DNA from: Felis catus
Lineage: Eukaryota
NCBI RefSeq assembly: GCF_018350175.1
Contig: NC_058368.1
Span: 90,522,001 to 90,586,000 of the forward strand
DNA: 64,000 nucleotides
Direction of reading: 5' to 3'
The position numbers were made by a program, and so were the translations under genes. The notes beneath the pieces were generated by a model. That model ran no database searches. It saw only the letters and a list, made by a program, of their open reading frames with translations, and was not told the origin of the DNA. Positions 20,201-57,380 of this stretch are shown in pieces. The number at the start of each line of letters is the position of its first letter. The first letter of the stretch is position 1.

Positions 20201-22488
20201 ATAGAGAGAGTACCTTGTTTACAGTTTTAAATTTTGTTTTTCACTGACAGGAACATTATAATCCATTTTTCCATAGCACTTTCTTTTTGCTATAAACCAA
20301 GTATGTTTAACATGTGAATACTCAAAACACATTGAAGATTCTCTAAATTCTTTAAAAAAAAAATTCTCCAAATAGTTTTCACAGCACACAGTTAAGCTTA
20401 ATTTAAAAGTACATCTGTTGCAGTTAAAAAAGCATCCAACCAGCACTTTCCTGACAAAGTCCTACAGTAAGCTATACAGGTTACAACTATGTTCAGTGCA
20501 CTTTTACTTTGCTTCGGAGTCATTATGAGCTGAATTTGCACACTATTCAAAGTAGTTCCTGGTTCCCCATCTCATTTGTCCCTCCCCGTAGCCCCCTAAT
20601 TGGGGGTGTGGCATCCAGGAGAGTTCCCATTTCCATTTTAAAGATGTGGAAACCAAGCTAGTTACCTAAGCTAGTTACCATGATGGGCCTCGAATTCAAG
20701 ACTCTGCATTCTGCTTCCAACTGTCACTTTATCCCTTAGGCTATCTAGCAGGGCAAAGTGAACTCTAATTAAAGGATGCAACAGCACGATTGCCAAAACG
20801 GCAGCAACAGCCTCTGCCCAGACGTTTACCTCTCATGGTTCTTGGAAGATAACCTGTTAGTTGAACTGTCTGTCCTGTTAAGATAAGTTAGGTGGAGACG
20901 GATGAGAACACCCATTTTCAGATAGGTCAGAAAATCTGTTGTTGTGGGGCACATTCACTCCAACACACAGTTCACTCTGGGCTTCTCATGATCCAGTCAC
21001 TAGGCTTGTTGGCTTATGTACCCTGGCTGGTGCAAAGGAGAACTCCCACACAGTGCTTTACCTCTGTTCCAAGTCCACTCTAAGTACAATTACAGCAAGT
21101 GTACAACATGGCAGTGATTCTATTCAAGACCCTCAAAAAAAATTTTTTTAATGCTGAAGAGCTAAGATACAGAATGATTTCAAAAATCAATACAATTCTT
21201 CCCTTAAAAACAACCAGCAACAAAACCCAAAAAACCTCTACTCGTTAAAAAATTAAAATGTTCCATTTCCTAAATTAGAGGTAAAGAGACTTAACCTTGG
21301 CTCACCTTAGTCCTCAGTTTAACTTCCCTCAACCACCATTCACTTGTGCCATACCCTGCAGTTAACTCTCTAGATCCAGTTCTCCCCCCCCCCCCCACCC
21401 CATTGCTAAAAATGTAACTTCAGGTACTGGGAAACAGGACTTAACCAATTCAAACAGCAGGATGTCAGTGTAGTGGACCAACAGCATTCCGACTATAATA
21501 ATTTATTGCAATCATTATTTATCTGGCAGTTAATACAGGGTTATCAATGTGTCTTCTCTGTCTTATTTTACACACATCTCAATTTAACTCTAACGACTCC
21601 ATCAGGTACTATTATGCCCATTATTTGGGGAGAACTGGGGCACAAAGGGTAAGTAAATTGCCCAAGTTCACACAGCAGCAAATGGTCCATAAAAGACTTG
21701 AACCAGGGCCTTAACCTTAAGCACTACACCAAAACTGCCCTGCCCTCAACTATAATCCCAAACGTGATCATAAAATTAATGGCATGACCTTGGGCCAGTC
21801 ATTTCATACCTCTGGGTCTCAGTTTCCTCCACTATAATACAACCTACCCTAATTAAAAGCAGGGGCTTTCCTGCTTTTAATGTCCGGTGAATTTCCGACT
21901 GGATTACTCCCCACCCCCAAATAGGTGTGTATGTTAAGACTGAAGTTCTTCAACCACGGCGTGTTCTAGCACATTCTCCATAGTCTTCGGGGTGCTAGGG
22001 TTCAGTCTTCGCTTTGCGGCTTTATTTTCCAGTATTGAACCTGTAATGCTAATCCTAAACATTCTCTCTCGTTCTGGTACTACATTTTCCCACTGCTAGG
22101 AGTACCGACTAGGCCTGATCCCACCCCAGACCTTTACCGGCTATTCCAACCCACCCCGCGGTTTCCCAGGTAGCCAGGAAAGGCCTTAGAAAGCCCTAGA
22201 AGCAAAGCCATAGGAAGAAGTTGGCTACCCAGAGGTCAAGGGAGGCTTCAGGGCACCTGCCACGCCTCCCGACCCCGGCAGCGCGGCCTCAGCCTGGCTC
22301 CCCAAACCAAGCGGCCCCGGTTAGGGCCTCGTCCCTCACGACTAGCGCGTCTGCCGAGGCCTGGGCCCTAGAAACCCAGCCCGACCCCCTCGGCCCCGGC
22401 CACGCCCGGCCCTTCGGCGCCGCACCGCGCACCCGGGCCCCCCGAGGTCCTCATAGGCCGGAGGACACGCGCAGGCCTCCTGTCTCAC

Positions 22489-22700
22489 CTCGAGTTTTAC
22501 GGGGACCGCCGGCGGCGCCCGCGCCTCCACCCGCCCGCACACCTGGCCCCGCGCTGCAGTGGAGACAGCGGCAGAAACGGCCCGACCGTCACGTGCCGCA
22601 GAACCAAGAGGCCTCGGCTACCGCTGCTGCCGCGCGAGCGAGCCCCACCGCGCAAAGCCCGGCCCTGCGTCCGCCCCTCGCTCCTGAGTAGCTACGGACG
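22489..22700 (-). other. CANX: CANX non-coding exon 1 (5' end approximate), followed by an intron of about 16 kb
   Basis: CpG-rich segment ending in donor GAG|GTGAGA at 22489/22488; resembles the CANX 5'UTR as recalled from other mammals; TSS not determinable from sequence. Confidence 0.75.
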
Positions 22701-22798
22701 GCACCAAGTCCCGCCCCCCCGCGCAAGCTCCAGGGTTCGGTTGGTCGGTGAGGCCATCGCTCTAGGCACCTTCCCATACGCCCCCTAGGGCTATTCTT

Positions 22799-22817
22799 CG
22801 TGGAGTGTGGGGATTGG
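22799..22817 (-). promoter_or_regulatory. ER stress response element (ERSE) CCAAT-N9-CCACG
   Basis: Minus strand reads CCAAT CCCCACACT CCACG, an exact consensus with 9-nt spacer, upstream of CANX exon 1. Confidence 0.75.
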
Positions 22818-23959
22818 CTAGGAGTGAGGCAGGAAGTGGCTGTTGGTTGGGTGGGAGAGAAGGGGGAGGAACAGCAGCGGAATAGGGAACCTCGGGCGCG
22901 CGCACCCTGGGGCGGGGCCGGTCTGGCACGCGTTCCCGCGCCCGGTTGTCCTGGTGCCTTAGTGGGCCAGTTGCCCGATGTTTCATTCCCGTATCTTTGG
23001 CTTCTTCCCCGCCGGTGCCTGGACCTAGAACCCAGGATGGGCATCCCGTTCACTTTGCTTAGGGGGCAAATGACAGCCGGCAGAAGGAGTGGGAGATCGG
23101 CTGAGCCTTTGGGAAGGGCCAGTTCCCAGAGGCAGCATGTGCGGGGATCAGATGGAACCCCTCACCGGCTTCTTTGGCCCGGCCTGAAGTTGACTGCACA
23201 GCTCTGGGTAACCAGGCACCACCGTTCCTGCAGAGTCATCTCTCTGGGCGCAGCAGCCTGCGGCCGCCTCCTTACCCAACACACAGTCCAGAATACTATA
23301 ATCCAAGGTTATTTCCACTTTCAGTTTGTGATGTTTCCTTAAATAAGATTAAACATAAAGGCACAGAGACTGACGGCAGGATTGAGAGAAAAGGATAGTG
23401 CAATGGAAAGATTTCAGACACACCACAATTTTTATAACCCACTTTAATATGTTGAAGAAATGGAAATGGCCAATGGCTTTCCTAGACCTTTTTGGGTCCT
23501 GGTCTCTGACTTCCATTTGTTTGGATACCCAAAGGCTGAATCTTAGGATGGAAAAAAATTGGAATCAGTAGATGTATCACCTATCCCAAGAACCAGCATT
23601 ATTTCCTCTTGCCACTTTTAAGGAGAAGAGAAGGGTCAGAGTTTGGTGTTTGCATAAACTTAACATTCTCCAATTCTTCACCCCCCAAATCTATGTAAGA
23701 GAATTTTATAATATAAATTATAATTTGTGCTCTGTCTCTCTCTCAAAAATAAATAAACACTAAAAATTTTTTTCAAAAAAGGAGTGTGCAGGGAGATGGT
23801 TTAGGTTTTAGATCTGGATTTTAGATTTAGTATGATTCCAGGGAGATCTGAAAGACTATGAGGCCAGTTGGGAAACCAATTTTTGCCGTTGATTTAAGAG
23901 CAGGATTAGGGAATGGCAGGGTGTGTAGAAACATGAGCATTGAATGTTTGTTTGTTTTA

Positions 23960-41997: not shown

Positions 41998-42762
<765 letters not shown>

Positions 42763-42765
42763 CGC

Positions 42766-42771
42766 AATAAA
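42766..42771 (+). terminator. CBY3 polyadenylation signal AATAAA
   Basis: Three nucleotides after the stop codon. Confidence 0.7.
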
Positions 42772-44199
42772 GCCCGTGCGGCGCACGCGCATTTCGCTCC
42801 TCGCTGCCGGCCCGGCACCTTCGTGGGCAGCCAAGTGGGGTCGGCTCGGGCTCGCGACCTGCGGGTAGGGACCATCACTTAGTGCGCGTTAGTGGACGGG
42901 TGACTCAGCCGGCAGCCCGTCTCGGGAGGGCGCGATAGGGCCGTGGAGGAAGGTGTGTGTGCGGCCCGCTGGGAACGCGGGGTGGGAGCCAGGCTTGCAA
43001 AGGGCAGTGCTAGGGGAGGGAGGAGTGGAGTGGGCGCGAGGATGGCAAGCAGGGGTGAGCAGTGGCGTTCTTGGCCCAAGGAACGGAGGACGAAGTCGGG
43101 GAGACAGTGAAACCTTGGGAGCTCAGCGATGCAGGGTGCGGTGAGGTGGTCAGGCGGAGAGGGTCGGGGACCTCGCTCTTGGCTCCCCTGGTTTAGAGGA
43201 GCGGCGCGGGCCAGAGGGTTTCAGCCTGAGTCCGGAGTATGTGTATTTTACGAAGCTTTCTCGAAACTGGGCCTCAGCCTCTCCCAGCTGCTGTGTGGCT
43301 TTTGGCGGGTAGCTTCTCCGTTACAGGTCTCCTTTCCTCCTCTGTAGAATAAAGGGTTTGTTTCACCCGGGGTGCAAACAAGCACTCTCCAGAGCTAAGC
43401 CTGTAACACAGATAGGATTTGCTCCACCCGCGTTGTTTAAAAGTTTTGCATTAGTTGTCAACATTAAAAAAATTTTTAATATTTATTTATTTTTGAGAGG
43501 GGGGAGGGACAGAGAGAGAGGGAGACACAGAATCCGAAGCAGGCTCCTGGCTTGCTTTCAGCACAGAGGCCGAGGCAGGGCTCCAACCCACCAATGAGAT
43601 CATGACGTGAGCCAGTCAGTCGCTTAACCGACTGAGCCCCCCAGGTGCCCTTAGTTGCCAACATTTAAGAATTTGGAAATTTCGTATTAAAAATCCAGAT
43701 TTCCTGTGCTCTCAAAGAGACTTGGCCATCCTGGACCTTCATTTTGTCCTACAGCAGTGGCCTTGAGCTGAATCGTGGCTGTTACCTCCTGGTGAGTTTC
43801 ACTCCTTTCTTCTGGTAGGTGTCTGATTTTGCTCTCCTCCTAGATCCATTTTGGATCGGGGACATGGGGGGTCTCCTTCCCCCAACCCCTATACACACAA
43901 AGTATAGTAGAAGGTGCTTCAGGGAGTGTGTTGTACTTGTGGTTGATGTAACTGCACAACAAAAGGTGGTGACACCAGTCCTTGCAATCTGTAACCTTTT
44001 CCCTGGAATGTAGACAGGGCATTTCAGCAACCACTGAAACCTGAGAGTGTGGGCCCTTTTCCCTAGGGCCAGGTAATACCTGTGAGAGAAGTGAGTGTCC
44101 TGTCTCCACCTAACTTTCCTTCAGGAGTAGACTAGGGATTACTAAACAGCTACTTTGATAGATGTTTTTCTGTGGGTTTGTTTTTGTTTTGTTTATTTT

Positions 44200-44438
44200 T
44201 TTTTTTATTATTTTTTTTTAATTTTTTTTTTTTTTAACGTTTATTTATTTTTCAGACAGAGAGAGACAGAGCATGAACGGGGGAGGGGCAGAGAGAGAGG
44301 GAGACACAGAATCGGAAACAGGCTCCAGGCTCCAAGCCATCAGCCCAGAGCCCGACGCGGGGCTCGAACTCACGGGCCGCGAGATCGTGACCTGGCTGAA
44401 GTCGGACGCTTAACCGACTGCGCCACCCAGGCGCCCCA
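44200..44438 (-). mobile_element. Young Can-SINE inserted in the tail of an older SINE
   Basis: Near-identical to the 23960-24178 copy; 14-bp TSD GTTTTGTTTATTTT (44186-44199 and 44439-44452). Confidence 0.88.
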
Positions 44439-47400
44439 GTTTTGTTTATTTTAAATGTTTATTTTTGAGAGAGAACACATGTGCATGAGCAGGGGAGGAG
44501 CAGAGAGAGAGAAGGAGACAGAATTCGATGCAGGCTCCCCACTGTGAGCACAGAGCTGGAAGCGGGGCTCTATCTCATGAACCCTGCCAGGTCATGGCCT
44601 GAGCTGAAGTCAGATGCCAGACTGAGCTACCCAGGCGCCCGACTTAACAGCTACTTTGTACAAAGATGTGGACTTATTCAATCAGGAAAACAACACAAAA
44701 CATGTCATTAGACACTAAGTTTAAAACATTTTGAGCAGTGCTTTTTTTTTGTATTTTAGTAATTCTGTGTATACATTAATGTAAATTAAATAAAAAATAT
44801 TTAAAATAGTTATGATGAAATCAATTTTCCTTTTAAAATAATTAAGAAAGGGGTGCCTGGTTGCTCAGTCAGTGAGGTGTCCAACTTCATTCAGCTCAGG
44901 ATCTCATGGTTTGTGGGTTTGAGCCCTGCATCAAGCTCTATGCTGACAGCTCAGAGCCTGGAGCCTGCTTCTGATTGTGTCTCCCTCTCTCTCTGCCCCT
45001 CCTCTGCTCATGCCCTGTCTCTCTCAAAAATTAATAAATGTTAAAAAAATTTTTTAAATAACTAAGAAAGGGGCACCTGGCTGACCTAGTCGGAAGAGTG
45101 TGTGCTCTTGATCCAGAGATTTTGAGTTTGAGCCCCATGTTGGGTGTAGAGATTACTTAAATAAAATATTTAAGTAAACAAAATGAAGAAAAAATATATA
45201 CAGACAAGGAAATGGAAAGGGAGTCAAAATGATAACACCAGAAAAAAATCAAGCCCAAAATAAGGTGCTAATGGAGAAACCATACTAAGTGAGAGATGCC
45301 AGACTCAAAGGGTCAGATATAGGATTCTCTTTATATAGTATACCCATAATAGGCAAATCCAGAGAGACAGGAAGCAGATTGGTGGTTACCAAGGGCTGGT
45401 GGGGGGGGGGGGAGGTAGGATTTGGGAGGAGGCAGTGACTGCTTAGCAGGCAAAGGGATCCCTTTTAAAGTGACAAAAAATGTTTTGGAACTGTTTGGTA
45501 ATGGTTGTACAGCACTGAATGCTCTAAAAGCCACTGAATTGTACACTTCAGTGAATTTTGTGTTACGCGAATTTTACCACAGTAAAAAAAAAAAAATTTT
45601 TTTAAGAAAGTGCTTTACATAAAAACATGAAGTAGGGGTGCTTGGGTGGCTCAGTCCATTAAGCGTCCAACTTAGGCTCAGGTCATGACCTCACGGTTTG
45701 TGGGTTTGAGCCCCCTGTCCGGCTCTGTGCTGACAGCTCGGAGCCTGGAGCCTACTTCGGATTCTGTGTCTCCCTCTCTCTCTCTCTGCCCCTCACCCAC
45801 TCACACTCTGTCTCTCTCTCTTTCAAAAATAAACATTTTTTAAAAATTAAAAAAAAGAAACATGCAGTAAAACGACATGAGTTGTAGGGAAACAGCTAAA
45901 ATCATAACAATGATCCAGGAATGCCTAAAGTTTAGGGAATATTGCTTTGATCAAAATACTTAACAATAAAGTAGCTGCGCTGACAGACCACAGCGGCAGG
46001 CAGGCAGGGAGCCCCATGTTTAGGGAGAGGCCATCCAAGTGGAGAAAGGGCCGGAAATAAATGCAGCAGGATGATATTTTGAGATATCTGACTTTGTTCT
46101 TCCTGCTATGGAATTTCAGCCCCTGACTGAGGCAGCCAAGTGTATTGCCCCAGGGAAGGATGTGACAAGAGCAGAAAGCTTGCACAAAGGACTCTTTGTG
46201 GCTTTCACCTCCTACAGCTCAGAACTCTGGGGATCAGAGCTTTGCAGAAAAATATTTTGGGGCTTGAAGAGGGAGGTCAAAGAGGCCGCAGATTTGTCTA
46301 CAGCAAGAGGAAAGATGAAGGGAAATGGGAGCAGAGAAGCTGGTAGGTCTCCCATCTTGGAAAGAAAAAATTCCTTATCTTGACCCTACATTACTTTCCA
46401 GCTACTGCCCCATTTCTCTGCTTCCCTTTATAATGAAACTCCAAGAAGTTTCCTGTATTCACTGTCCTCCCCTCGCTCCCCTTTGCTCTTTCCTCCCCTC
46501 CCTCTTTGCTCTGCTCTCTGTCAAAGATGCCATCACCCTGCTATGTTGCTTTGTCCTTTGCCCATTGTCCATCTTCACCTTGGCCGATCAGCATTTCAGG
46601 CAGTTGAGGCCTCCTCCTCCTTGAAACACTGTCTTCACCTGGCATGGGGGAGGGAGGCACTGCACTCTCCTGATTTGCTTCTTCCCTCACACCGTTCCCT
46701 CCTTCTCAGTGTCTGGCTGATTTTACTCTCACTTCCTTCAGGTATCTGCTTAAAATTTTTTTTATGTTTTTATTTTATATTTGAAAGAGAGAGCAAGCAG
46801 GGGAGGGGCAGAGAAATGGAGACAGAATCTGAAGCAGACTCCAGGCTCCGAGCTGTCAGCATAGATCCCAACATGGGGCTTGAACTCACAGTGACATCAT
46901 GACCTGAGCTGAAGTCAGATGCCTAACCAGCTGAGCCACTCAGCCCCTAGGTATCTGCTTAAATGTCATCTTTTCAGTGAAGTTTTCCCTGATGACTCTA
47001 TTTTTTAAGTGTTTTTTTTAGAAGTTTTATATATTTATTTTGAGAGAGAGGGAAAGCGACCAGGGGAGGGCCAGAGAAAGGGGGAAAGAGAGAGAATCCC
47101 AATCAGGCTCTGCACCATCAGCGTAGAGCCCAACGTGGGGCTCAATCTTAGGAACCATCAGATCATGACTTGAACGAAGTCAAGAGACAGACGCTTAACC
47201 TACTGAACCACCCAGGGACCACCCCTCCCCGCCCCCCCACCATGTCTCTATTTAAATGAGCATGTGTTCTCCCCAGCTGAAACCAGACCAGCACAACTTA
47301 CCCTTCTTTCCTGTTTTGTTTTCTAACACCTGTTACCATTTGATAGGCTGTATATTTTATTGTCCTTCTCCCCCCCCCCCCCCACCTCTTACCCCACCAC

Positions 47401-47512
47401 CACTACTAGGACACAAGCTCCATAGAGCTGTTATATTCTCTCCTGTATTTCAGTGTAGAAAAGTATTTAATGACACTTATTAGGACCTCTGAAAATATTC
47501 CTAGAATGAACA

Positions 47513-47959
47513 TGAAAGAGCGGACCTAGGCCGGCCAACTCCATTTTGTTCTGTGTCCTCCATCTTGAGTGACTACGTCCCTGACATGGCCCCCTTTCCC
47601 GGAAAACCACAGAAAGAAATTCCCCTTCAAACCTCAGACCAAGCCTCTTCCCCTTGAGTAACTTCCGGCTCACCCGTTCAAACCTCCCATTCAAACCACG
47701 CCTGGCAACCTGCGCAACAGGACTCTGACCCTTCCCCAGCCAATCGGCTAAGGCCATGACCATTACCCCGCCAACTGCCCCTAGATCCCTATAAAACCTT
47801 TGTGCTTTTGAAACTCGCTCTCTCTCTCCCTGGCATCTCACCGCTGCATCGGTGCAGGTAGGGGATTGAGCTCGAGCTAGCTCGAGTAAAGGCTCTTTGC
47901 TTTTGCATTGGACTCGGCTCCCTGGTGGTCTTTGGAGATCACGAATTCTGGGCATAACA
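47513..47959 (+). repeat. 5' LTR (447 bp): CCAAT 47740-47744, TATAAAA 47790-47796, variant poly(A) signal AGTAAA 47885-47890
   Basis: TGAAAGAGC...GGCATAACA, homologous to 54742-55177. Confidence 0.95.
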
Positions 47960-47961
47960 TT

Positions 47962-47979
47962 TGGGGGCTCGTCCGGGAT
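47962..47979 (+). other. Primer binding site, tRNA-Pro
   Basis: TGGGGGCTCGTCCGGGAT, the MLV-type Pro PBS, 2 nt after the LTR. Confidence 0.95.
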
Positions 47980-48346
47980 CCCCAAGACCCCCAAGGGACC
48001 CCCCGACCCAGAGAGCCTGACTGGCCATGGTTAGTGTCTGTTCGTTCCCTGTCTCTTCTCTGTGAGCTCATTTCTGAAATTCTGGTAGTGCCCGGTGCAG
48101 TCTAAGTGGACGCACTGGAGGACCTCGGGCCAGGAGTTTCAGAAGACGTTCCGATCCTCCCTTCTGGAGGAAAGTGGATTCCCCTCAAAGGTCTGAGACG
48201 AGGTGGGTCGCTCCCGCCGGTCAGTGTGAGGCCGTCGTCTAGCTTTCAGTTTTGCTTCCACGGAGTTGGAAGAGTTTCTAGGGGCCCTCTGTTTGTCTGT
48301 TTCTGTGTTTCTCTGTTTTTTTCTGTGGACTTACTGGACGGACGTT

Positions 48347-49943
48347 ATGGGACAGACTCAGACTACTCCTCTAAGTATTATGATTGATCACTTTAAGGAT
48401 GTCAGGGGAAGAGCTAACAACCTCAGTGTGGAAGTCCGAAAGGGTCGGTGGCAGGTTTTTTGTTCTAGCGAGTGGTCAGCTTTCAATGTCAGATGGCTGC
48501 CAGAGGGAACCTTCAAGCTCCCTACCATCCACCAAGTCGGGTATCATCTCTCGGCCTAAGATGGGCCATCCTGATCAGCTTCCTTACATTATCACTTGGC
48601 AGGACCTTGTAGAAGACCCACCCTCTTGGCTTAAGCCCTTCCTAGCCCTATGCCCTCTGGAGCCAAAACACATTCTCGCTTTGCAGGGGACAGAAAAGAA
48701 GGAGAACAAGAAAAGTCTTACCCAGCTTTCAGCACCCCTCTACCCTGTCCTACAAGGGGGGACTGAAGAAGAATTTTTCCTCCCCCGTATAACCCCCCTA
48801 GGATGCCGGAAGAACACCATCCTCCTCCTCTGGGGGAGACAGATGCTGTTCCGAGAGCAGGAGGCGGAAATGCTCCAGTGGGAAGCCCGCCCTTTACCAG
48901 ACAAAGGGCTCAGAGGGAGCAATCCGTCTCCGCCGCCGACTCCACTATTCTGCCCCTGCGAGCCACCGGGCCCCCAGATGCGGAGGGGAATCAGCCCTAT
49001 CACTATTGGCCTTTCGCCACTAGTGATCTCTACAATTGGAAAGCTCAGAATCCTAAGTTTTCCAAGAAACCAACAGGGCTTATTGATCTGTTAGACTCTG
49101 TTCTTTTTACCCATCAACCCACATGGGGCGATTGCCAGCAGCTTTTGCAGGTCCTGTTCATGACTGAGGAAAGAGAAAGAATCCTCAATGAGGCCTGAAA
49201 ACTAGTTCCGGCACAGATGGGAATCCCACCACCAACCAGGCTCAGATAGATGCCTCCTTCCCCTTAACTCGGCCCCAGTGGAATTTCAACACGGCAGAAG
49301 GTAAGGAGAGGCTCGGGGTCTACCGCCAGACTCTAATGGGGGGTCTCCAAATGGCTGCTAGGAAGCCAACCAATTTGGCCAAGGTAGGAAATGTGCAACA
49401 GGAAAAAGATGAATCTCCTGCTGCCTTTTTAGAACGGATCATGGAGGCATTCCATACCTATACCCCCATGGATCCAGAGGCTCTGGAAAGCAAGGCAGCT
49501 GTTATCATGGCCTTTGTAAACCAATCGGCCATAGACATTAGGAAAAAATTACAAAAAACAGATAGACTAGGAGAAAAAAAGTCTGCAGAACTTACTGGTG
49601 GTAGCCACAAAGGTATATAATAACCGGGAGCCTCCTGAGGATAAGCAGGCTCGCGCCATGGTGGCTGCCAGCAGTAAGCAGACTCGAGACCTGGCCAGAA
49701 TACTACTAGCTACCACTGCTGACTTCCCCGAGGAATGAGACTGCTGTCTCCGGCAGCTGGCGGACAACTCAAGAGGAGGTAAAGGAACCACCAAGGTGGG
49801 GGAGGCAGAGGCTGCAGAAAGATCAGTGCGCATACTGCAAGGAGATAGGGCATTGGGTCCGAGATTGTCCGAAAAAGGCCAGCGGGAAGGGAAGCAAGAC
49901 TGATCGGGTAAAAGTCTTAGAGCTAGATGAACTGAGTGATTAG
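48347..49943 (+). pseudogene. gag: ERV gag (disrupted)
   Basis: [10 protein letters not shown] matrix start, [25 protein letters not shown]-like QEKDESPAAFLER, zinc knuckle [14 protein letters not shown]; several frameshifts and stops; TAG at 49941-49943. Confidence 0.93.
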
Positions 49944-52890
49944 GGGAGTCGGGGTTCAGACCCTCTCCCTGAGCCCAGGGTAACTCTTAAAGTGGAGGGG
50001 ACCCTGGTTGACTTCCTTATCGACACTAGAGCACAACATTCGGTCCTCCACACCCCACAAGGAAAGGTAGCCAACAAGAAGTCCTGGGTACAAGGGGCAA
50101 CTGGTATGAGCCAGTATTCATGGACTACCCGAAGAACGGTAGATGTGGGGACAGGATGGGTATCCCACTCTTTTATGGTAATACCGGAATGCCCCTACCC
50201 GCTGTTAGGACGGGACTTACTGACCAAGATTGGAGCTCAGATAACTTTCAGACAAGGGGGGCCTCAGGTCACCGATGGCAAGGGCCACCCCATCCAGGTC
50301 CTGACCATGAAACTAGAGGATGAATACCACCTCCACAAGGAGGCACTCTCGAGAGAGGATAATATAGACAGATGGCTACAAGAATTCCCCTTGGTTTGGG
50401 CAGAGACGGGGGGGGGGGGGGGATATGACTAGCCGCTCACAGGACCCCGGTCCTGGTAGAGCTCAAGCCAGGAGAAGGTCCGGTAAGAATCAAACAATAC
50501 CCCATATCTCAGGAGGCCCGGAAGGGGATCCAGCCACACATCTGGAGACTACGAAGCCTAGGGGGACTAGTTCCTTGCCAGTCTGCCTGGAACACTCCCC
50601 TACTGCCGGTCAAAAAGCCTCACACAAATGACTATCGACCGGTACAAGACCTCCAGGAAGTAAATAAGAGGGTCACGGACATATACCCAACTGTTCCCAA
50701 CCCATATACTCCTTGGCACCCTCCAGGGTCTGGTATACTGTACTAGATTTAAAGGACGCCTTCTTCAGTCTGCCGCTGGCACCCCAGAGCCAACCCTTGT
50801 TTGCCTTTGAGTGGCATGATCCAGAGGAGGGCTACAGTGGGCAACTCACCTGGACACGGCTGCCTCAGAGGTTTAAAAATTCGCCCACCATCTTTGACGA
50901 GGCACTACACGAGGGCCTGGGTGAGTACAGAAAGGAGCACCGTGGCCTCACCCTCCTACAGTACGTAGATGACATCCTGATTGCTGCTGACATAGCCAAG
51001 GACCGTGAGTGAGGGACCCAGGACCTGCTGGCTACCCTGGGGGCCTTGGGATACAGGGCAACCGCGAAGAAATCTCAGATATGCAGGGAGAGGGTAAGTT
51101 ACCTGGGATACATCCTGGAGGGCGGACAGCAGCGGTTATCAGATGCCAGAAAAGAAACTGTCCTAAAGATCCCTACTCCCAACTCCCGAAAGGAAGTAAG
51201 GGAATTCCTAGGATCTGCCGGCTACTGCTGCCTCCGGGTTCTGGGTTTTGCTGAGATCGCCAGGCCCCTATATGAAGCTACCAAAGAGGGGAAAACATTT
51301 AAATGGACTGAAAAAGAAGAAACTGCCTTTAATCAGTTGAAAAAGGCCCTCCTAAGTGCCCCAGCCCTGGGCCTGCCAGACATTACGAAGCCCTTCCATC
51401 TCTTTGTAGACGAACACAAGGGAATAGCAAAAGGGGTTCTAACTCAAGCCTTAGGCCCTTGGAACCACCCGGTGGCTTACCTGTCCAAGAAGCTAGACCC
51501 AGTGGCTGCCGGCTGGCCGCCATGCCTAAGAATTATTGAGGCGACAACACTCCTAGTCAAGGACGCAGACAAACTGACCCTAGGACAGGAGATCTGGATC
51601 ACGACCCCACACGCCATTGAAGGGGTCCTGAAACAGCCTCCTGATAGACGGATGAGTAACACACTTATGACTTATTACTAGAGCCTCCTACTCAACCCTC
51701 CATGAGTGCAGTTCCACCCCAGTGCGGCCCTCAATCCTGCAACCCTGCTGCCCGACCCTGACCTAGATGCTCCACTACATGACTGTGTGGGGACCCTGGA
51801 GCAAGTACATGGATTCCGGACGGATCTGACCGACTGGCCCCTCCCTGATGCCAAGGCTACTTGGTTCACTGATGGCAGCAGCTTTGTGAGGGACAGACAC
51901 AGATTCACCAATAGGACACCAAAATAGAGCAAGTTATATCTGCTTGCAAGACCTGCCAACTCACCAATGCAAGAGCCACATCAAATAAAAAAGGAACCAG
52001 GCTCAGAGGCACCAGACCAGGAGCCCAATGGGAGGTCAACTTCACTGAAATTAAACCAGGAAAGTATGGTTATAAATATCTTATTATTTATAGACACCTT
52101 CTCTGGCTGGGTGGAGGCATACCCAACCAAGCATGAAATGGCTCAGACGGTAGCTAAGAAGCTACTAGAAGACATCTTACCCACGTATGGTTTTCCTGCC
52201 ATGGTAGGATCAGACAACAGACCAGCTTTTATCTCGCAGGTAATGCAGACAGTAGCCAAGGCTGTGGGGGCAAACTGGAAATTACATTGTGCTTATAGGC
52301 CCCAGAGCTCAGGACAGGTAGAAAGAATGAATAGAACCCTAAAAGAGACCCTTACCAAATTAACCATGGAGACTGGCGGGGACTGGGTGACTCTCCTACC
52401 GTATGCCCTTTACTGGGTTAGGAACACTCCTTACACCCTGGGTTTTACTCCCTATGAAATCATGTTTGGCAGGCTACCCCCTATTATTCCCAACCTTCGA
52501 GCTGAACTTCTTGCTGAGTTTAAAGATCAAGAACTTTTTCTTTCCTTGAGAGGGCTCCAGAGGGTGCACGAGGACATTTGGCCGCACCTCCGTGCCATCT
52601 ACGAGGCTGGCCCGACCCCGACACCTCATCAGTACAGGCTGGGAGACTGGGTCTACGTCAAGAGGCACCACTGAGAGACCCTCGAGCCGCACTGGAAGGG
52701 ACCCTACATCGTGGTGCTGACAACCCCCACCGCTCTCAAAGTAGACGGCATCGCGACCTGGGTCCATCACACCCACGTTCGGCCAGCGGACCCCTCCACG
52801 ATCCGGAAGGACTTCGTCACGTGATGGGCTGTCAATCGGGACCAACACAACCCGCTCAAACTCAGGTTACAGCACATTCGACCCACCTGA
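49944..52890 (+). pseudogene. pol: ERV pro-pol (disrupted, with internal deletion near 51900)
   Basis: Protease FLIDTRA (DTG mutated), [19 protein letters not shown] and YVDD (50962-50973), RNase H start WFTDGSS, integrase DTFSGWVEA and AYRPQSSGQVER; multiple frameshifts and stops. Confidence 0.94.
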
Positions 52891-53540
52891 TATTGGTAAT
52901 TCTGTTAGCTCTGCTTGTCACTGCTCATGCTGCTGAGAGTCCCCACGCCCCCCAAAACATCACCTGGCAGATCATAGACACCAGCTCGGGGACAATACTT
53001 AATCAGACTTCCCAGAGCCACCCCACAAATACTTGGTTCCCAGAACTTTGCGTAGACCTCCAAACTCTGCTCCCCTTGTCACCATATGCTCCCGGATTCC
53101 ATGCACAGAACCTTTATTTCTATGTCTGCCCCGGCCACTCTCGCTCGAGCACATGTGGGGACGCGGCTGACTACTTTTGTGCCTCCTGGTCATGTGTCTC
53201 GACGGGGCACATCTGGTGGACCCCACCACGCACCGGAGATCTCATTGTGGTAAAGCGGCCCAGTGGCCCCCGACCGCCATATGCCTGGGGGCGCGGTAAT
53301 CCCATAGTTATATCCTTTACAAGCCAAGGTAAAAAAACAACAGGATGGGAGAGTGGAAAAACCTGGGGACTCAGGATATATGACCGGGTTAGGCTGGGAG
53401 CCAAGGACAAGGGAACGTTATTTACCCTCCGAATGCAAGCGACTCCCCTTGCCCAGCAGTCCCCCACAGGGGTAGGACCCAACCAAGTACTAGTTCCCCG
53501 ACCTGCCCCCACCCGGACAGCCACTCCCAGAAACACCTAG
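52824..53540 (+). CDS. env: Open truncated Env ORF, 238 aa: signal peptide, receptor-binding domain and start of proline-rich region
   Basis: gtgATGg start; hydrophobic LILVILLALLVTAHA; SPH, FYVCPG, CGDAADYFCASWSCVSTG, GKTWGLR and GPNQVL motifs; TAG at 53538-53540. Expression not shown. Confidence 0.6.
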   Translation: MGCQSGPTQPAQTQVTAHSTHLILVILLALLVTAHAAESPHAPQNITWQIIDTSSGTILNQTSQSHPTNTWFPELCVDLQTLLPLSPYAPGFHAQNLYFYVCPGHSRSSTCGDAADYFCASWSCVSTGHIWWTPPRTGDLIVVKRPSGPRPPYAWGRGNPIVISFTSQGKKTTGWESGKTWGLRIYDRVRLGAKDKGTLFTLRMQATPLAQQSPTGVGPNQVLVPRPAPTRTATPRNT

Positions 53541-54709
53541 GCCTTGGCCACACAGCCCTCCACATCCCCTGTCCCCCGGAGGGGACACCGGAGCGTCACC
53601 CGCATCTCCTGCCCCAGGTCACAATTTACTATCTGATACAGACCCCTGTGGAGCACAGTTGTCGGAGCATACCAGGTACTAAACACTTCTAGACCTGACC
53701 TGACCACGTCCTGTTTGCTCTGTCTAGATGTCTGGCCCCCATATTATGAAGGTATTGCCATTAAAGGCAATTATACAACAGCCTCCAACTCTAGCTCCTG
53801 CAGATGGCAGCAGGCTACTGCAAGACTAATCCTCCAGGCGGTAACAGGGCAGGGCACTTGCATAAGCCACGTGCCCCCCGGGCAGTCACATCCCTAATGA
53901 AACCCTAACAGTCCCCAGGGAGACAGTGTATCTACTTCCCCCCGAAAATGCATGGTGGGCCTGTTCCAGCGGCCTCACTCCCTGTGTCCACTCCCAAGTC
54001 CTTAACTCCTCGAAAGAAGGCTTCTGCATACTCGTGTAGTTGATCCCCAAGCTAGTGTACCATTCGGGGGAAGAAATACTTAACAGGTTAGGCTCTACTA
54101 ACCCCCGAAGTAAGAGAGAGCCTATTACAACCCTAACTCTGGCTGCACTCTTGGAACTGGGATTAGCGGGGGCAGGGACTGGAATATCTTCACTCGTCAT
54201 CCAGGACAAAAACTATGGAACCCTAAGGGCAGCCATTGACTTAGACATAGAATTGAGAAATCAATTTCTCATTTACAGGAATCCCTTACTTCCTTATCGG
54301 AAGTAGTACTCCAAGACAGAAGGGGATTAGACTTATTATTCATGCAGCAAGGAGGACTATGTGCAGCCCTAGGGGAAGAATGTTGCTTCTATGTTGATCA
54401 CTTGGGGGTCGTAAAAGAATCTATGGCCCTCATAAGGGAAGGGCTGCAAAAACAAAAGTTTAGAGAGAGAACAATCTCAGTCCTGGTACGAGTCTTTGTT
54501 CAACTGGTCTCCCTGGTTAGCTACCCTCATCTCGGCCCTTGCTGGACCCCTCACCATCCTGCTCCTACTATTAACCCTCGGACCCTATATCATCAACAGA
54601 CCAGTTTGTCAGGGACTGCATAGGGGCCGTCCAACTAATGGTCCTCCGTGCTCAGTGCAAGCCCCTAATAACAGAAGAGGACAAAATAGAAATGCAGCTG
54701 GTCCCATGA
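53541..54709 (+). pseudogene. env: Remainder of env (SU C-terminus and TM), disrupted
   Basis: CLLC (from CWLC), RSKR cleavage site 54106-54117, [21 protein letters not shown] and CAALGEECC; stops and frameshifts. Confidence 0.9.
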
Positions 54710-54741
54710 TTGGGTCCATAAGCTACATGACAAGGGCGGAA

Positions 54742-55177
54742 TGAAAGAGCGGACCTAGGCCGGCCAACTCCATTTTGTTCTGTGTCCTCCATCTTGAGTG
54801 ACTACGGCCCTGACATGGCCCCCTTTCCCAGAAAACCACAAAGAAATTCCCATTCAAACCTCAGACCACATCTCCTCCCTTTGAGTAACTTCCCGCTCAC
54901 TTCAAACTTCCCGTTCAAACCACACCTGGCAACCTGCGCAAGGGGACTCTGACCCTTCCCCAGCCAATTGGCTAAGGCCACAACCATTACCCCACCAACT
55001 GCCCCTAGATCCCTATAACACCTTTGTGCTTTTGAACCTCGCTCTCTCTGGCATCTCACTGCTGCATCGGTGCAGGTAGGGGATTGAGCTCGAGCTAGCT
55101 CGAATAAAGGCTCTTTGCTTTTGCATCAGACTCGGCTCCCTGGTGATCTTTGGGGATCACGAATTCTGGGCATAACA
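54742..55177 (+). repeat. 3' LTR (436 bp): variant TATA TATAACA 55014-55020, AATAAA 55103-55108
   Basis: Homologous to the 5' LTR. Confidence 0.95.
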
Positions 55178-55179
55178 AA

Positions 55180-57380
55180 GGTCTACAGGACCAGGCACCT
55201 GAATCCCAGGGAGCAGATGGTGTCTGGCCTTTGTCATTGGCCCAGATGTCTGATCCCCTAGGAGGCAGGAAAGATGTGCTAGATGTGTTGGAACTTTTGG
55301 TTACATCTTATCAGCCCACCTCTGACTTTAGCCACAGCTATGGTAGATGCCTCCATGTACACTGCCTCGTTTCAAGTGTCTACTGTAGGTTTCTCTGCTT
55401 TTCTGCTTTAGGGCTTTCTCCTAAGCCTCAGGACCTCTCTCAACCATAGGCATAGCCTGGGAGTGCAGGTGAGTTAACGCCTTCTGAGGCAACCTTCAAC
55501 TCATAAGGGACAGAAGCCAAAATACACTTTGTTGAATTTTCCTTCTACTCTGTGTCATTCTCCCTCCCTCTCATTTCCTGGATTCACCTACCATATCAAC
55601 TGCCCCCAAGTTCTAGGCTCAGTCTCTGCTTTCATGGGGATTCAAGCTAAAACAGTAGGAAGTAGCAATGGAAGGGAGACTATAGGGATAGGAATCTAGA
55701 ACTGGCTCATCTACCATTCAGAAGGCAACAGCGACCTCCCACCACTGGGGTGGTGATAACCCCTAATCTGAAGCATAAGACTTTTCCCTTTGGTAGATTG
55801 GAATGAGATAGAAGTTGAAGGGAAAGCTTGGCTTATGAAGTAGCTTTGGCCCTTGAAAGATGGGAAGGCAACTGTAATTACAAGGATTATAGGGGTGGCT
55901 AGTTTTTCTAAACCTGCTTTAGAAACTTTGCAGAAGGCATGTAAGACTCAAGTTAGCCCACTCGACTGAGGGCACAATATGAAAGCCAGAAAGTCTCCAG
56001 AGGCAACGTAAATGCTAACTTGGGGCGCCTGTGTGACTCAGTCAGTTAAGCATCCGATTTCGGCTCAGGTCATGATCTTGTGGTTCGTGAGTTCGAGCCC
56101 CATGTCGGGCTCTGTGCTGACAGCTCGGAGCCTGGAGCCTGCTTCGGATTCTGTCTCCCTCTCTCTCTGCCCCTCCCTGCCTTTGCTCTCTCTCTCTCTC
56201 TCAAAAATAAAGAAAATTAAGACATACTTACTTTTTCAGCAAAGCGTGCTGAAAACTGGGCCCACAATTTAACCATAAGGGCAGCAGAGCTGTGGAGCAG
56301 ACCAGTGGATCCTCAACAAATTTCCTGTGCTAGAGTCAGGGCTTGAAGGGGACGGGGTGGGGGGGGGGAGGAGGGGGCGGAGGGAGGTGGGATCCTGAGG
56401 CCTGGGCCTGGCATGGGGTTGTTTGGGTGGATATATATAAGAATCTTGAGCCTGAGAGTCCTGAGCAGTAGCTGCTTCCTTGCCTTGATATGGAAGAACA
56501 GTCTAGTTTGCCTGGAGGCTATGCAGAGATCTCACTTGAGGTGAATGTCTTATGCAATAATGCTGATTACTCTCACCATCACCTCCGCTCATTGCCTCCA
56601 GACCAACAACTAGAATTGGGTCTCAGCATGGCCTCTGCAGTGAAGCACAGTCCCTACTCTAGGAGGAAATAGCTCAGTCACCCAAAAACTTGCAGGACAG
56701 GTCTGACTGCAGGGACTGGGGAAGCACACCCAGGGAGTGGATCTTCAAGGTACCAGATGGGGGTGGGATACAGAATATTGTCGAGCAAGTTGGTTGATAC
56801 GGGAGCATTTCCCATAACTGAAGACTGAAAGTGCTGCCAAGAACACCCAGAGCTTGTCCTAAGGTGCTTCTGGATGACTCCGGAAGTTTGGACACCGTGG
56901 TGGCCTCAGTCAGATGAGTTGGAGATGCCAGCATTGCCTTGGCTGAGTTTTAAAGAAGGGAACCAAAGGCTCAGGGGAGTGGGAATGTTAAAATGGCTTT
57001 ATTACATAAAACCAGAAGATCCACCATTTGACTGTTCTTTAGCAGCTGCCCAGAGGATGCTCCCTCCACTAAGGCAGTAGGGGATGAGACAGTGAAGGCA
57101 GCATTGAGTCATCTAGAAGCTGTTGGTGGCTGTCCCCTCTGGGCCAGAATTGACAGCAGGAGAGGCTGCCACGGAACGGGGCTTCCTAGTGCCATTGGAG
57201 ATGATGGGATTCTCGAGTGGCATTTAGCTATTCCGATGGTGATATGATTCTTAACAGCCAGAGGACAGAAGGGCCTTCTCACCACACTTTGCAGCAAGAC
57301 TGGAGTGGCCGCTAGGGGACGTCTTGCTTCTCAGAGCTCTCTGGCAATGCCATGGGTGTCCATGGGGGCAAAATTAATGG
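55180..57380 (+). mobile_element. Ancient ERV-L remnant: LTR16-like LTR ending about 55653, then degraded gag-containing internal sequence with a SINE at about 56021-56215
   Basis: LTR end GGCTCAGTCTCTGCTTTCATGGGGATTCAAGCTAAAACA; peptide WPQSDELEMPALPW..FKEGNQRLRGVGMLKWLYY resembles ERV-L Gag. Confidence 0.65.

Follow-up and report, generated by a model that had tools for sequence, protein, structure and literature searches.

Does a decayed gammaretroviral provirus in the cat genome still encode a secreted, receptor-binding fragment of its envelope (Env) protein, or has one reading frame outlived its neighbors by chance? The question was raised by an earlier note on a 64,000-nucleotide stretch of Felis catus DNA (hereafter "the window"; all positions are counted within it), which proposed that a truncated env frame here specifies a soluble protein resembling Refrex-1 and FeLIX. 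Our analysis gives about even chances that the frame encodes such a decoy, co-opted from an FcERV-gamma6 provirus, older than the known examples, driven by a host promoter and kept by weak selection. A search of mostly non-subscription literature found no publication on this locus (the supplement of PMC9245640 was outside its scope). The features of the locus are listed in Table 1.

Table 1. Features of the CBY3 locus and of the provirus downstream of it
Feature	Position in window	Strand	Basis or remarks
CBY3 (Chibby family), last coding exon in open frame	41998..42762	+	Pfam PF14645, E 6e-36
Host exon, 37 nt, single-copy, no ATG	43755..43791	+	AG and GTGAGT flanks; one match in genome G000
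5' LTR, followed by primer-binding site	47513..47959	+	Poly(A) hexamer AGTAAA at 47885
gag, broken	48347..49943	+	2 stops and 5 frameshifts
pro-pol, broken	49944..52890	+	Stops, frameshifts, deletion of about 640 nt near 51900
env splice acceptor region, exon start 52551 or 52561	52534..52560	+	AG at 52549-50 and 52559-60
ATG-free stretch before env, CpG-rich	52551..52823	+	91 env-frame codons open in all four felids
Truncated env ORF, 238 aa: signal peptide, RBD, start of proline-rich region	52824..53540	+	Frame, domain matches, orthologs
Distal env remnant, broken; would be 3' UTR	53541..54710	+	6 frameshifts and 1 further stop
3' LTR, likely transcript end	54742..55177	+	AATAAA at 55103

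The provirus extends from 47513 to 55177, downstream of CBY3 and in the sense orientation relative to a host CpG island (about 42000-43250; CpG observed/expected 0.80) that surrounds the CBY3 frame. Host genes on both sides keep the expected order. A second CpG island at 22200-23100 is, judging by gene order, presumably the CANX promoter, and a motif roughly 19.8 kb beyond the end of the window (L069) we take as the beginning of an HNRNPH1-like coding exon. The primer-binding site is presumably of the tRNA-Pro type. At 47509-47512 / 55178-55182 a perfect target-site duplication is lacking, whereas all seven paralogs that could be scored show one, 4 or 5 bp long; its absence could be due to a small slip in the 3' flank. 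The two LTRs differ by a K2P distance of 0.063, or about 17 My at the substitution rate implied by Table S1 of PMC4643047. The 5' LTR hexamer differs from the AATAAA found in all 16 detected paralog hexamers, which would favor read-through of upstream host transcripts. Outside the env frame, the gag, pro, RT and distal env frames of this copy carry 18 stops and frameshifts in 1550 codons, and the pol deletion comes in addition. The initial description of gag, pro, pol and distal env as all disrupted holds for gag, pol and distal env, and fails for pro, whose 152 codons are free of lesions.

Eight FERV1 primers were tested out of the 20 in Table S6 of PMC4199695, and all eight match in order with 0-2 mismatches. 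The portions of PMC4199695 at hand equate FERV1 with ERV1-1_FCa, which those of PMC4643047 equate with FcERV-gamma6, related to MLERV1 of bats and MPERV1 of pangolins. Identity to the FeLV-B receptor-binding domain (RBD) is 30%, and other env families in the cat genome (G000) reach at most 48% over the C-terminal half of the RBD, so the earlier suggestion that the provirus belongs to neither ERV-DC nor FeLV is borne out. Among the 40 matches to the env frame listed in G000, 10 extend over 701-717 nt and 30 are limited to the first 263-293 nt. This agrees with the published pattern of a few old env-bearing copies and many with a common env deletion; 9 of 43 FcERV-gamma6 copies are given as env-bearing in the sections of PMC4643047 that we could use. 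The same sections report a family-wide env omega not different from 1, which weighs against co-option, and conclude that no copy has kept a functional envelope. A ranking of copies by summed identity was left unused because overlapping matches inflate it. The tree of the ten env-bearing copies is nearly a star, its terminal branches close to 0.045, so their decay has been largely independent. One sibling provirus lies 2 Mb away (L003/L031, G000:C1 at about 92.563 Mb); its env is open for 246 codons with the RBD whole, followed by deletions, and it may serve as an internal control or be another candidate. Among the env-deleted copies (L012-L030), 16 of 19 translated share the same 87-codon frame, comprising the signal peptide and about 50 residues.

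The env frame itself, the front third of the gene, is intact, as first described: 238 codons run from an ATG at 52824, in the context GTGATGG, to a TAG at 53538-53540, within a stop-to-stop frame of 338 codons open from 52524. Hydropathy alone gives one hydrophobic segment at about residues 20-37 and nothing after residue 40. The motifs (SPH at 39-41, sequons NIT at 45 and NQT at 60, GPNQVL at 218-223), the cysteines (positions 3, 76, 102, 111, 119 and 124), a Pfam TLV_coat match (E 1e-17) and sequence matches to the FeLV-B and Friend MLV RBDs (E 1e-21 to 5e-18) agree with the proposed layout of a signal peptide followed by a complete RBD. The predicted structure, of moderate quality (pLDDT 61.5, with a weak region at 112-133), matches the folds of the same two RBDs (E about 1e-10, 26-30% identity). 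Together, hydropathy, sequence and fold matches describe a signal peptide plus whole RBD lacking a TM anchor, and the stop falls, as had been noted, inside the proline-rich region, leaving a short stub. The FcERV-gamma6 RBD has very short variable regions; the cat domain lacks the cysteines that precede the NP motif in MLV, FeLV and the bat relatives, a point against the co-option reading.

Is one open frame of this length surprising? At the lesion rate of its other frames, 2.76 breaks are expected in the 238 env codons of this copy and none is seen (P0 0.063). The nine paralogs carry 2.73 breaks per 238 codons overall and a mean of 4.0 (range 1-7) in env codons 1-238; their frames from the env ATG are 189, 246, 79, 58, 107, 24, 13, 127 and 58 amino acids long. 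For at least one open frame among ten copies P is 0.17-0.49, and copy L003 is likewise open across the RBD, to about codon 233. Within one cat genome, the open frame is not beyond chance, and the earlier note's own caution on this point was justified. These numbers favor a neutral survivor, a reading that we consider a serious contender, somewhat short of even: host transcripts pass into an old acceptor and end in the 3' LTR, and the env frame has escaped lesions by luck, its protein having no selected role. A provirus lying sense-wise downstream of a host CpG island would, under neutrality, be expected to receive host transcripts at its old acceptor.

Other felids extend the comparison. A protein search finds cheetah and Geoffroy's cat gene models at 98% and, through their clusters, a leopard model. 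In all three the 238-amino-acid frame is open with an identical end (4 differences from the cat in cheetah, 5 in Geoffroy's cat, 10 in leopard), so that in these annotated models the frame and its stop are kept, over four genera with the cat, as the co-option proposal had required across Felidae. The three are the named species seen in a type of search to which broken or unannotated orthologs are invisible; no further orthologs appeared in it among longer proteins. Many more felids than these have been annotated. Orthology has two bases. The models of two species carry the gene name CBY3, and CBY3 lies upstream in the cat window. In addition, an integrase frameshift that is private to this copy among ten lets the cheetah and leopard models read through in one frame, a site that is split over two frames in 10 of 11 paralog loci and deleted in the eleventh. 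Orthology in cheetah and leopard makes the insertion older than the split between the cat and Panthera lineages, put at 10.8 My in the part of PMC4643047 seen.

Several other proteins were set aside. P0033 (20 differences, same end) is an apparent mosaic of a young-copy N-terminus and a leopard-like C-terminus and was dropped from the counts; P0009 (tiger) and P0004/P0050 were rejected as orthologs, being broken and resembling copies L006 and L002. The RefSeq entries XP_053075384/433/444, XP_045340750/786/860 and XP_053763560/577, labeled as felid "chibby homolog 3 isoforms" and, in leopard, "uncharacterized", are wholly proviral and likely misannotated.

How improbable is such survival? Leopardus diverged 8.0 My ago and Acinonyx 6.7 My ago. 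On the three foreign branches (P0034 and P0036 excluded from this statistic), the expected number of env breaks is 2.2-2.5 when scaled to the 12 amino-acid changes there, 3.7-4.3 when scaled to the other frames and 4.0-5.8 when scaled by time. The chance of no break accordingly ranges from 0.11 to 0.003 and is 0.08-0.11 under the conservative calibration; as evidence it is biased upward, because broken or unannotated orthologs cannot appear. The conservative value is compatible with neutral survival, for which it also counts that a sibling copy (L002-like, P0050) has a gene model too.

The dN/dS comparison suggested at the outset gives purifying selection a weak indication that falls short of significance in the paralog test. 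In three-copy comparisons, N/S in env is 0.85 for this copy versus 1.40 for paralogs (p 0.17) and in the RBD 0.71 versus 1.20 (p 0.27), a deficit with which neutrality is comfortable. Between orthologs, env has 19/714 changes versus 29/640 in the other frames (ratio 0.59, p 0.044), in pairs that share the window's branch and are thus non-independent; single-species tests give p 0.09-0.35. Counted as distinct changes among orthologs, env (about 16/238) is as dense as the frame upstream of it (6/91), and this off-frame viral stretch, equally open and equally variable, again fits a neutral history. The stop at codon 239 is found too in L009/L037, in another subclade; common ancestry of the two stops is rejected by the trees, so the site may be a hot spot, and its recurrence in an unrelated copy takes weight from its conservation. 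On the other side, the private amino-acid rate in the RBD is the lowest of ten copies (2.2 per 100 codons versus 3.6-18.9), and two CGA codons that have become stops in 3/9 and 4/9 paralogs are sense in all four felids. A neutral account needs jointly four open lineages, escape at these two recurrent stop sites, the lack of an upstream ATG described below and the lowest RBD amino-acid rate. The net signal of amino-acid constraint in these alignments is weak, and selection on the env frame is suggested, not shown.

We are also interested in how the frame could be expressed. One contig of run X2 has 29 letters before 52550 that match 43762-43790 exactly, joining the host exon of Table 1, which lies 1 kb past the end of CBY3 and 8.8 kb upstream of the env acceptor, to env at 52550/52551. 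The implied intron, from 43792 to 52550, is GT-AG and specific to this locus; the junction comes from one contig in 1 of 4 runs, and the 5' boundary of the exon (43755) is drawn from an AG alone. The acceptor tract predicted in the earlier note fares well: both AGs are present, and kept in 10/10 copies, the X2 junction falls at 52551, and no ATG intervenes before the env start. Gene models of the other felids use both acceptors with donors in gag and pol, near 49300, 50900 and 52240 in the RefSeq models listed above. The LTR-leader donors that had been proposed at 48029/48030 and 48202/48203 are unsupported, the sole junction seen being that from the host exon. No LTR-leader junction is seen in contigs over the env region, where such junctions show only as loose ends. 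The first donor brings with it an ATG (48027-29) that acceptor 52551 would place in frame with env and that occurs in 3/10 copies; the GT of the second (48203) is present in 2/10 copies only.

A search of sequencing runs gave 19 that contain the sequence, from 7 studies, none of them registered as RNA, which speaks neither for nor against transcription. The ORF is covered by contigs of three runs presumed to be RNA, one of which is labeled as a second organism; for none of them are differing letters listed. A raw poly(A) run (X23) contributes only 4 reads from 12.9 million records, which weighs against the co-option reading. An X4 contig continues for 1419 nt beyond 53700; if colinear, it would end at about 55119, shortly after the AATAAA of the 3' LTR. 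Contig depth increases at the acceptor in X2 and X10 and does not in X4; this was given no weight, since depth summed over contigs measures poorly and paralogs share words. Either CpG island is a candidate start of the host transcript. In the stretch between acceptor and env start, at least one ATG occurs in 8/9 paralogs and none in this copy, whose CpG density there is the highest among the ten.

Could selection act on something other than a soluble decoy? It might act on the RNA, with the env exon as acceptor and last exon of a CBY3-linked transcript, or on N-terminally extended proteins (the 342-492-amino-acid models, with an internal signal sequence). The 91 codons from acceptor to ATG are in frame and open in all four species, the gene models start upstream, the leader donor carries an in-frame ATG, and the CpG density and altered 5' LTR hexamer of this copy would fit a constraint on RNA. 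Against this, the model N-termini differ by species and isoform, being parts of gag, RT or integrase, which is what longest-ORF calling would produce, the observed host exon lacks an ATG, and the one at 48027 is confined to 3/10 copies. We regard selection of this kind as quite improbable.

The identical end of the frame in felids and the splicing of a host exon onto env suggest that cats likely make a secreted, virus-blocking decoy. Under the co-option reading, the FcERV-gamma6 provirus, in place downstream of CBY3 since before Panthera and Felinae parted, would be transcribed from a host promoter lying upstream of 43755. The 5' LTR, gag and pol would be skipped as this CBY3-side transcript is spliced to the env acceptor, and it would terminate some 2.6 kb farther on, within the 3' LTR. 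With its stop in the terminal exon, this transcript would escape junction-dependent decay. Translation would begin at 52824, the first ATG, and cleavage of the signal near residues 36-37 would release an RBD some 200 residues long that bears two N-glycans. The predicted RBD would likely be secreted, occupy a cell-surface entry receptor and block related gammaretroviruses, as Refrex-1 does through CTR1 and FeLIX through Pit1.

Truncated Envs of similar layout also occur outside the cats. P0006, P0007, P0010 and P0051-P0055 are truncated Envs of 255-257 amino acids counted from the env start with one aligned end, comprising six distinct sequences at 83-95% mutual identity; P0053/P0054 are from Pipistrellus kuhlii. 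Their shared frame and end count in favor of the co-option reading. If they are orthologs, an unbroken frame at such divergence would make them better candidates for co-option than the cat locus is. The closest relative not of felid type, at 64%, is the P0005 cluster (8 members, 220-276 amino acids), which ends at the close of the proline-rich region in 6/8 members; our guess is that it is the pangolin family MPERV1. The P0016/P0059 cluster (7 members, 221-244 amino acids, one of them on 59 contigs) combines signal peptide and RBD with a fixed end and is related to otter P0015. A broader scenario strikes us as rather unlikely: that a host-promoter-driven soluble RBD shared by all Felidae is older than any other RBD-only decoy of cats and one among several parallel captures (238 amino acids in cats, 255-257 in vesper bats, 276 in a third host) against the same receptor, from one cross-order virus. 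If true, it could help explain the family's shift from infection to retrotransposition in cats.

Should the decoy be real, all cat species have an antiviral or host-physiology protein that has gone unrecognised, filed wrongly in RefSeq under CBY3 isoforms and stemming from a family for which the literature reports no functional envelope. The Refrex-1/FeLIX theme would be extended from the Felis lineage to more than 10 My back, and the RBD would offer a natural means of probing for the receptor used by a virus that passed between cats, bats and pangolins. It would also make testable the idea that decoys, once captured, drive a retrovirus away from infection and toward retrotransposition. If the frame is neutral, the locus usefully cautions that in proviruses 15-20 My old an env frame of 240 codons can stay open by chance.

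How does the locus compare with known systems? In the main text of PMC9245640, as far as it was available, truncated Envs of 230-439 amino acids are secreted and antiviral, a range that includes the 238 amino acids of the cat frame, and Refrex-1 derives from ERV-DC7 and ERV-DC16 and interferes at CTR1. The cat locus resembles Refrex-1 in its signal peptide and RBD, its premature stop, the lack of TM and the lethal lesions downstream; it differs in belonging to another ERV family, in its insertion before the Panthera split and in having a host exon as the observed donor. FeLIX and Trunc-C4, the enFeLV products of 273 and 369 amino acids, interfere at fePit1 and serve as FeLV-T cofactors, according to the part of PMC11019853 available. 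They have the same architecture, and the predicted model of the cat protein shares the fold of the FeLV-B RBD (1LCS); the cat locus, however, has about 30% identity to 1LCS and much shorter variable regions, and it is at least 10.8 My old, whereas FeLIX dates to the ancestor of the domestic cat and the European wildcat. EnvV2-Fca (439 amino acids, SU and part of TM, ERV-V family, dN/dS 0.08-0.81 in the accessible part of 10.1101/2024.01.28.577663) is likewise a soluble feline ERV Env conserved across species; it is under clear purifying selection, whereas at the cat locus the signal is weak. Within FcERV-gamma6 (PMC4643047, PMC4199695), the locus belongs to the old copies that have env; the available passages of the FcERV-gamma6 paper consider neither secretion of a truncated product nor splicing from a host exon. 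The locus is thus a new candidate in the known class of soluble truncated Envs, from which it differs by its family, its age and its splicing to a host exon.
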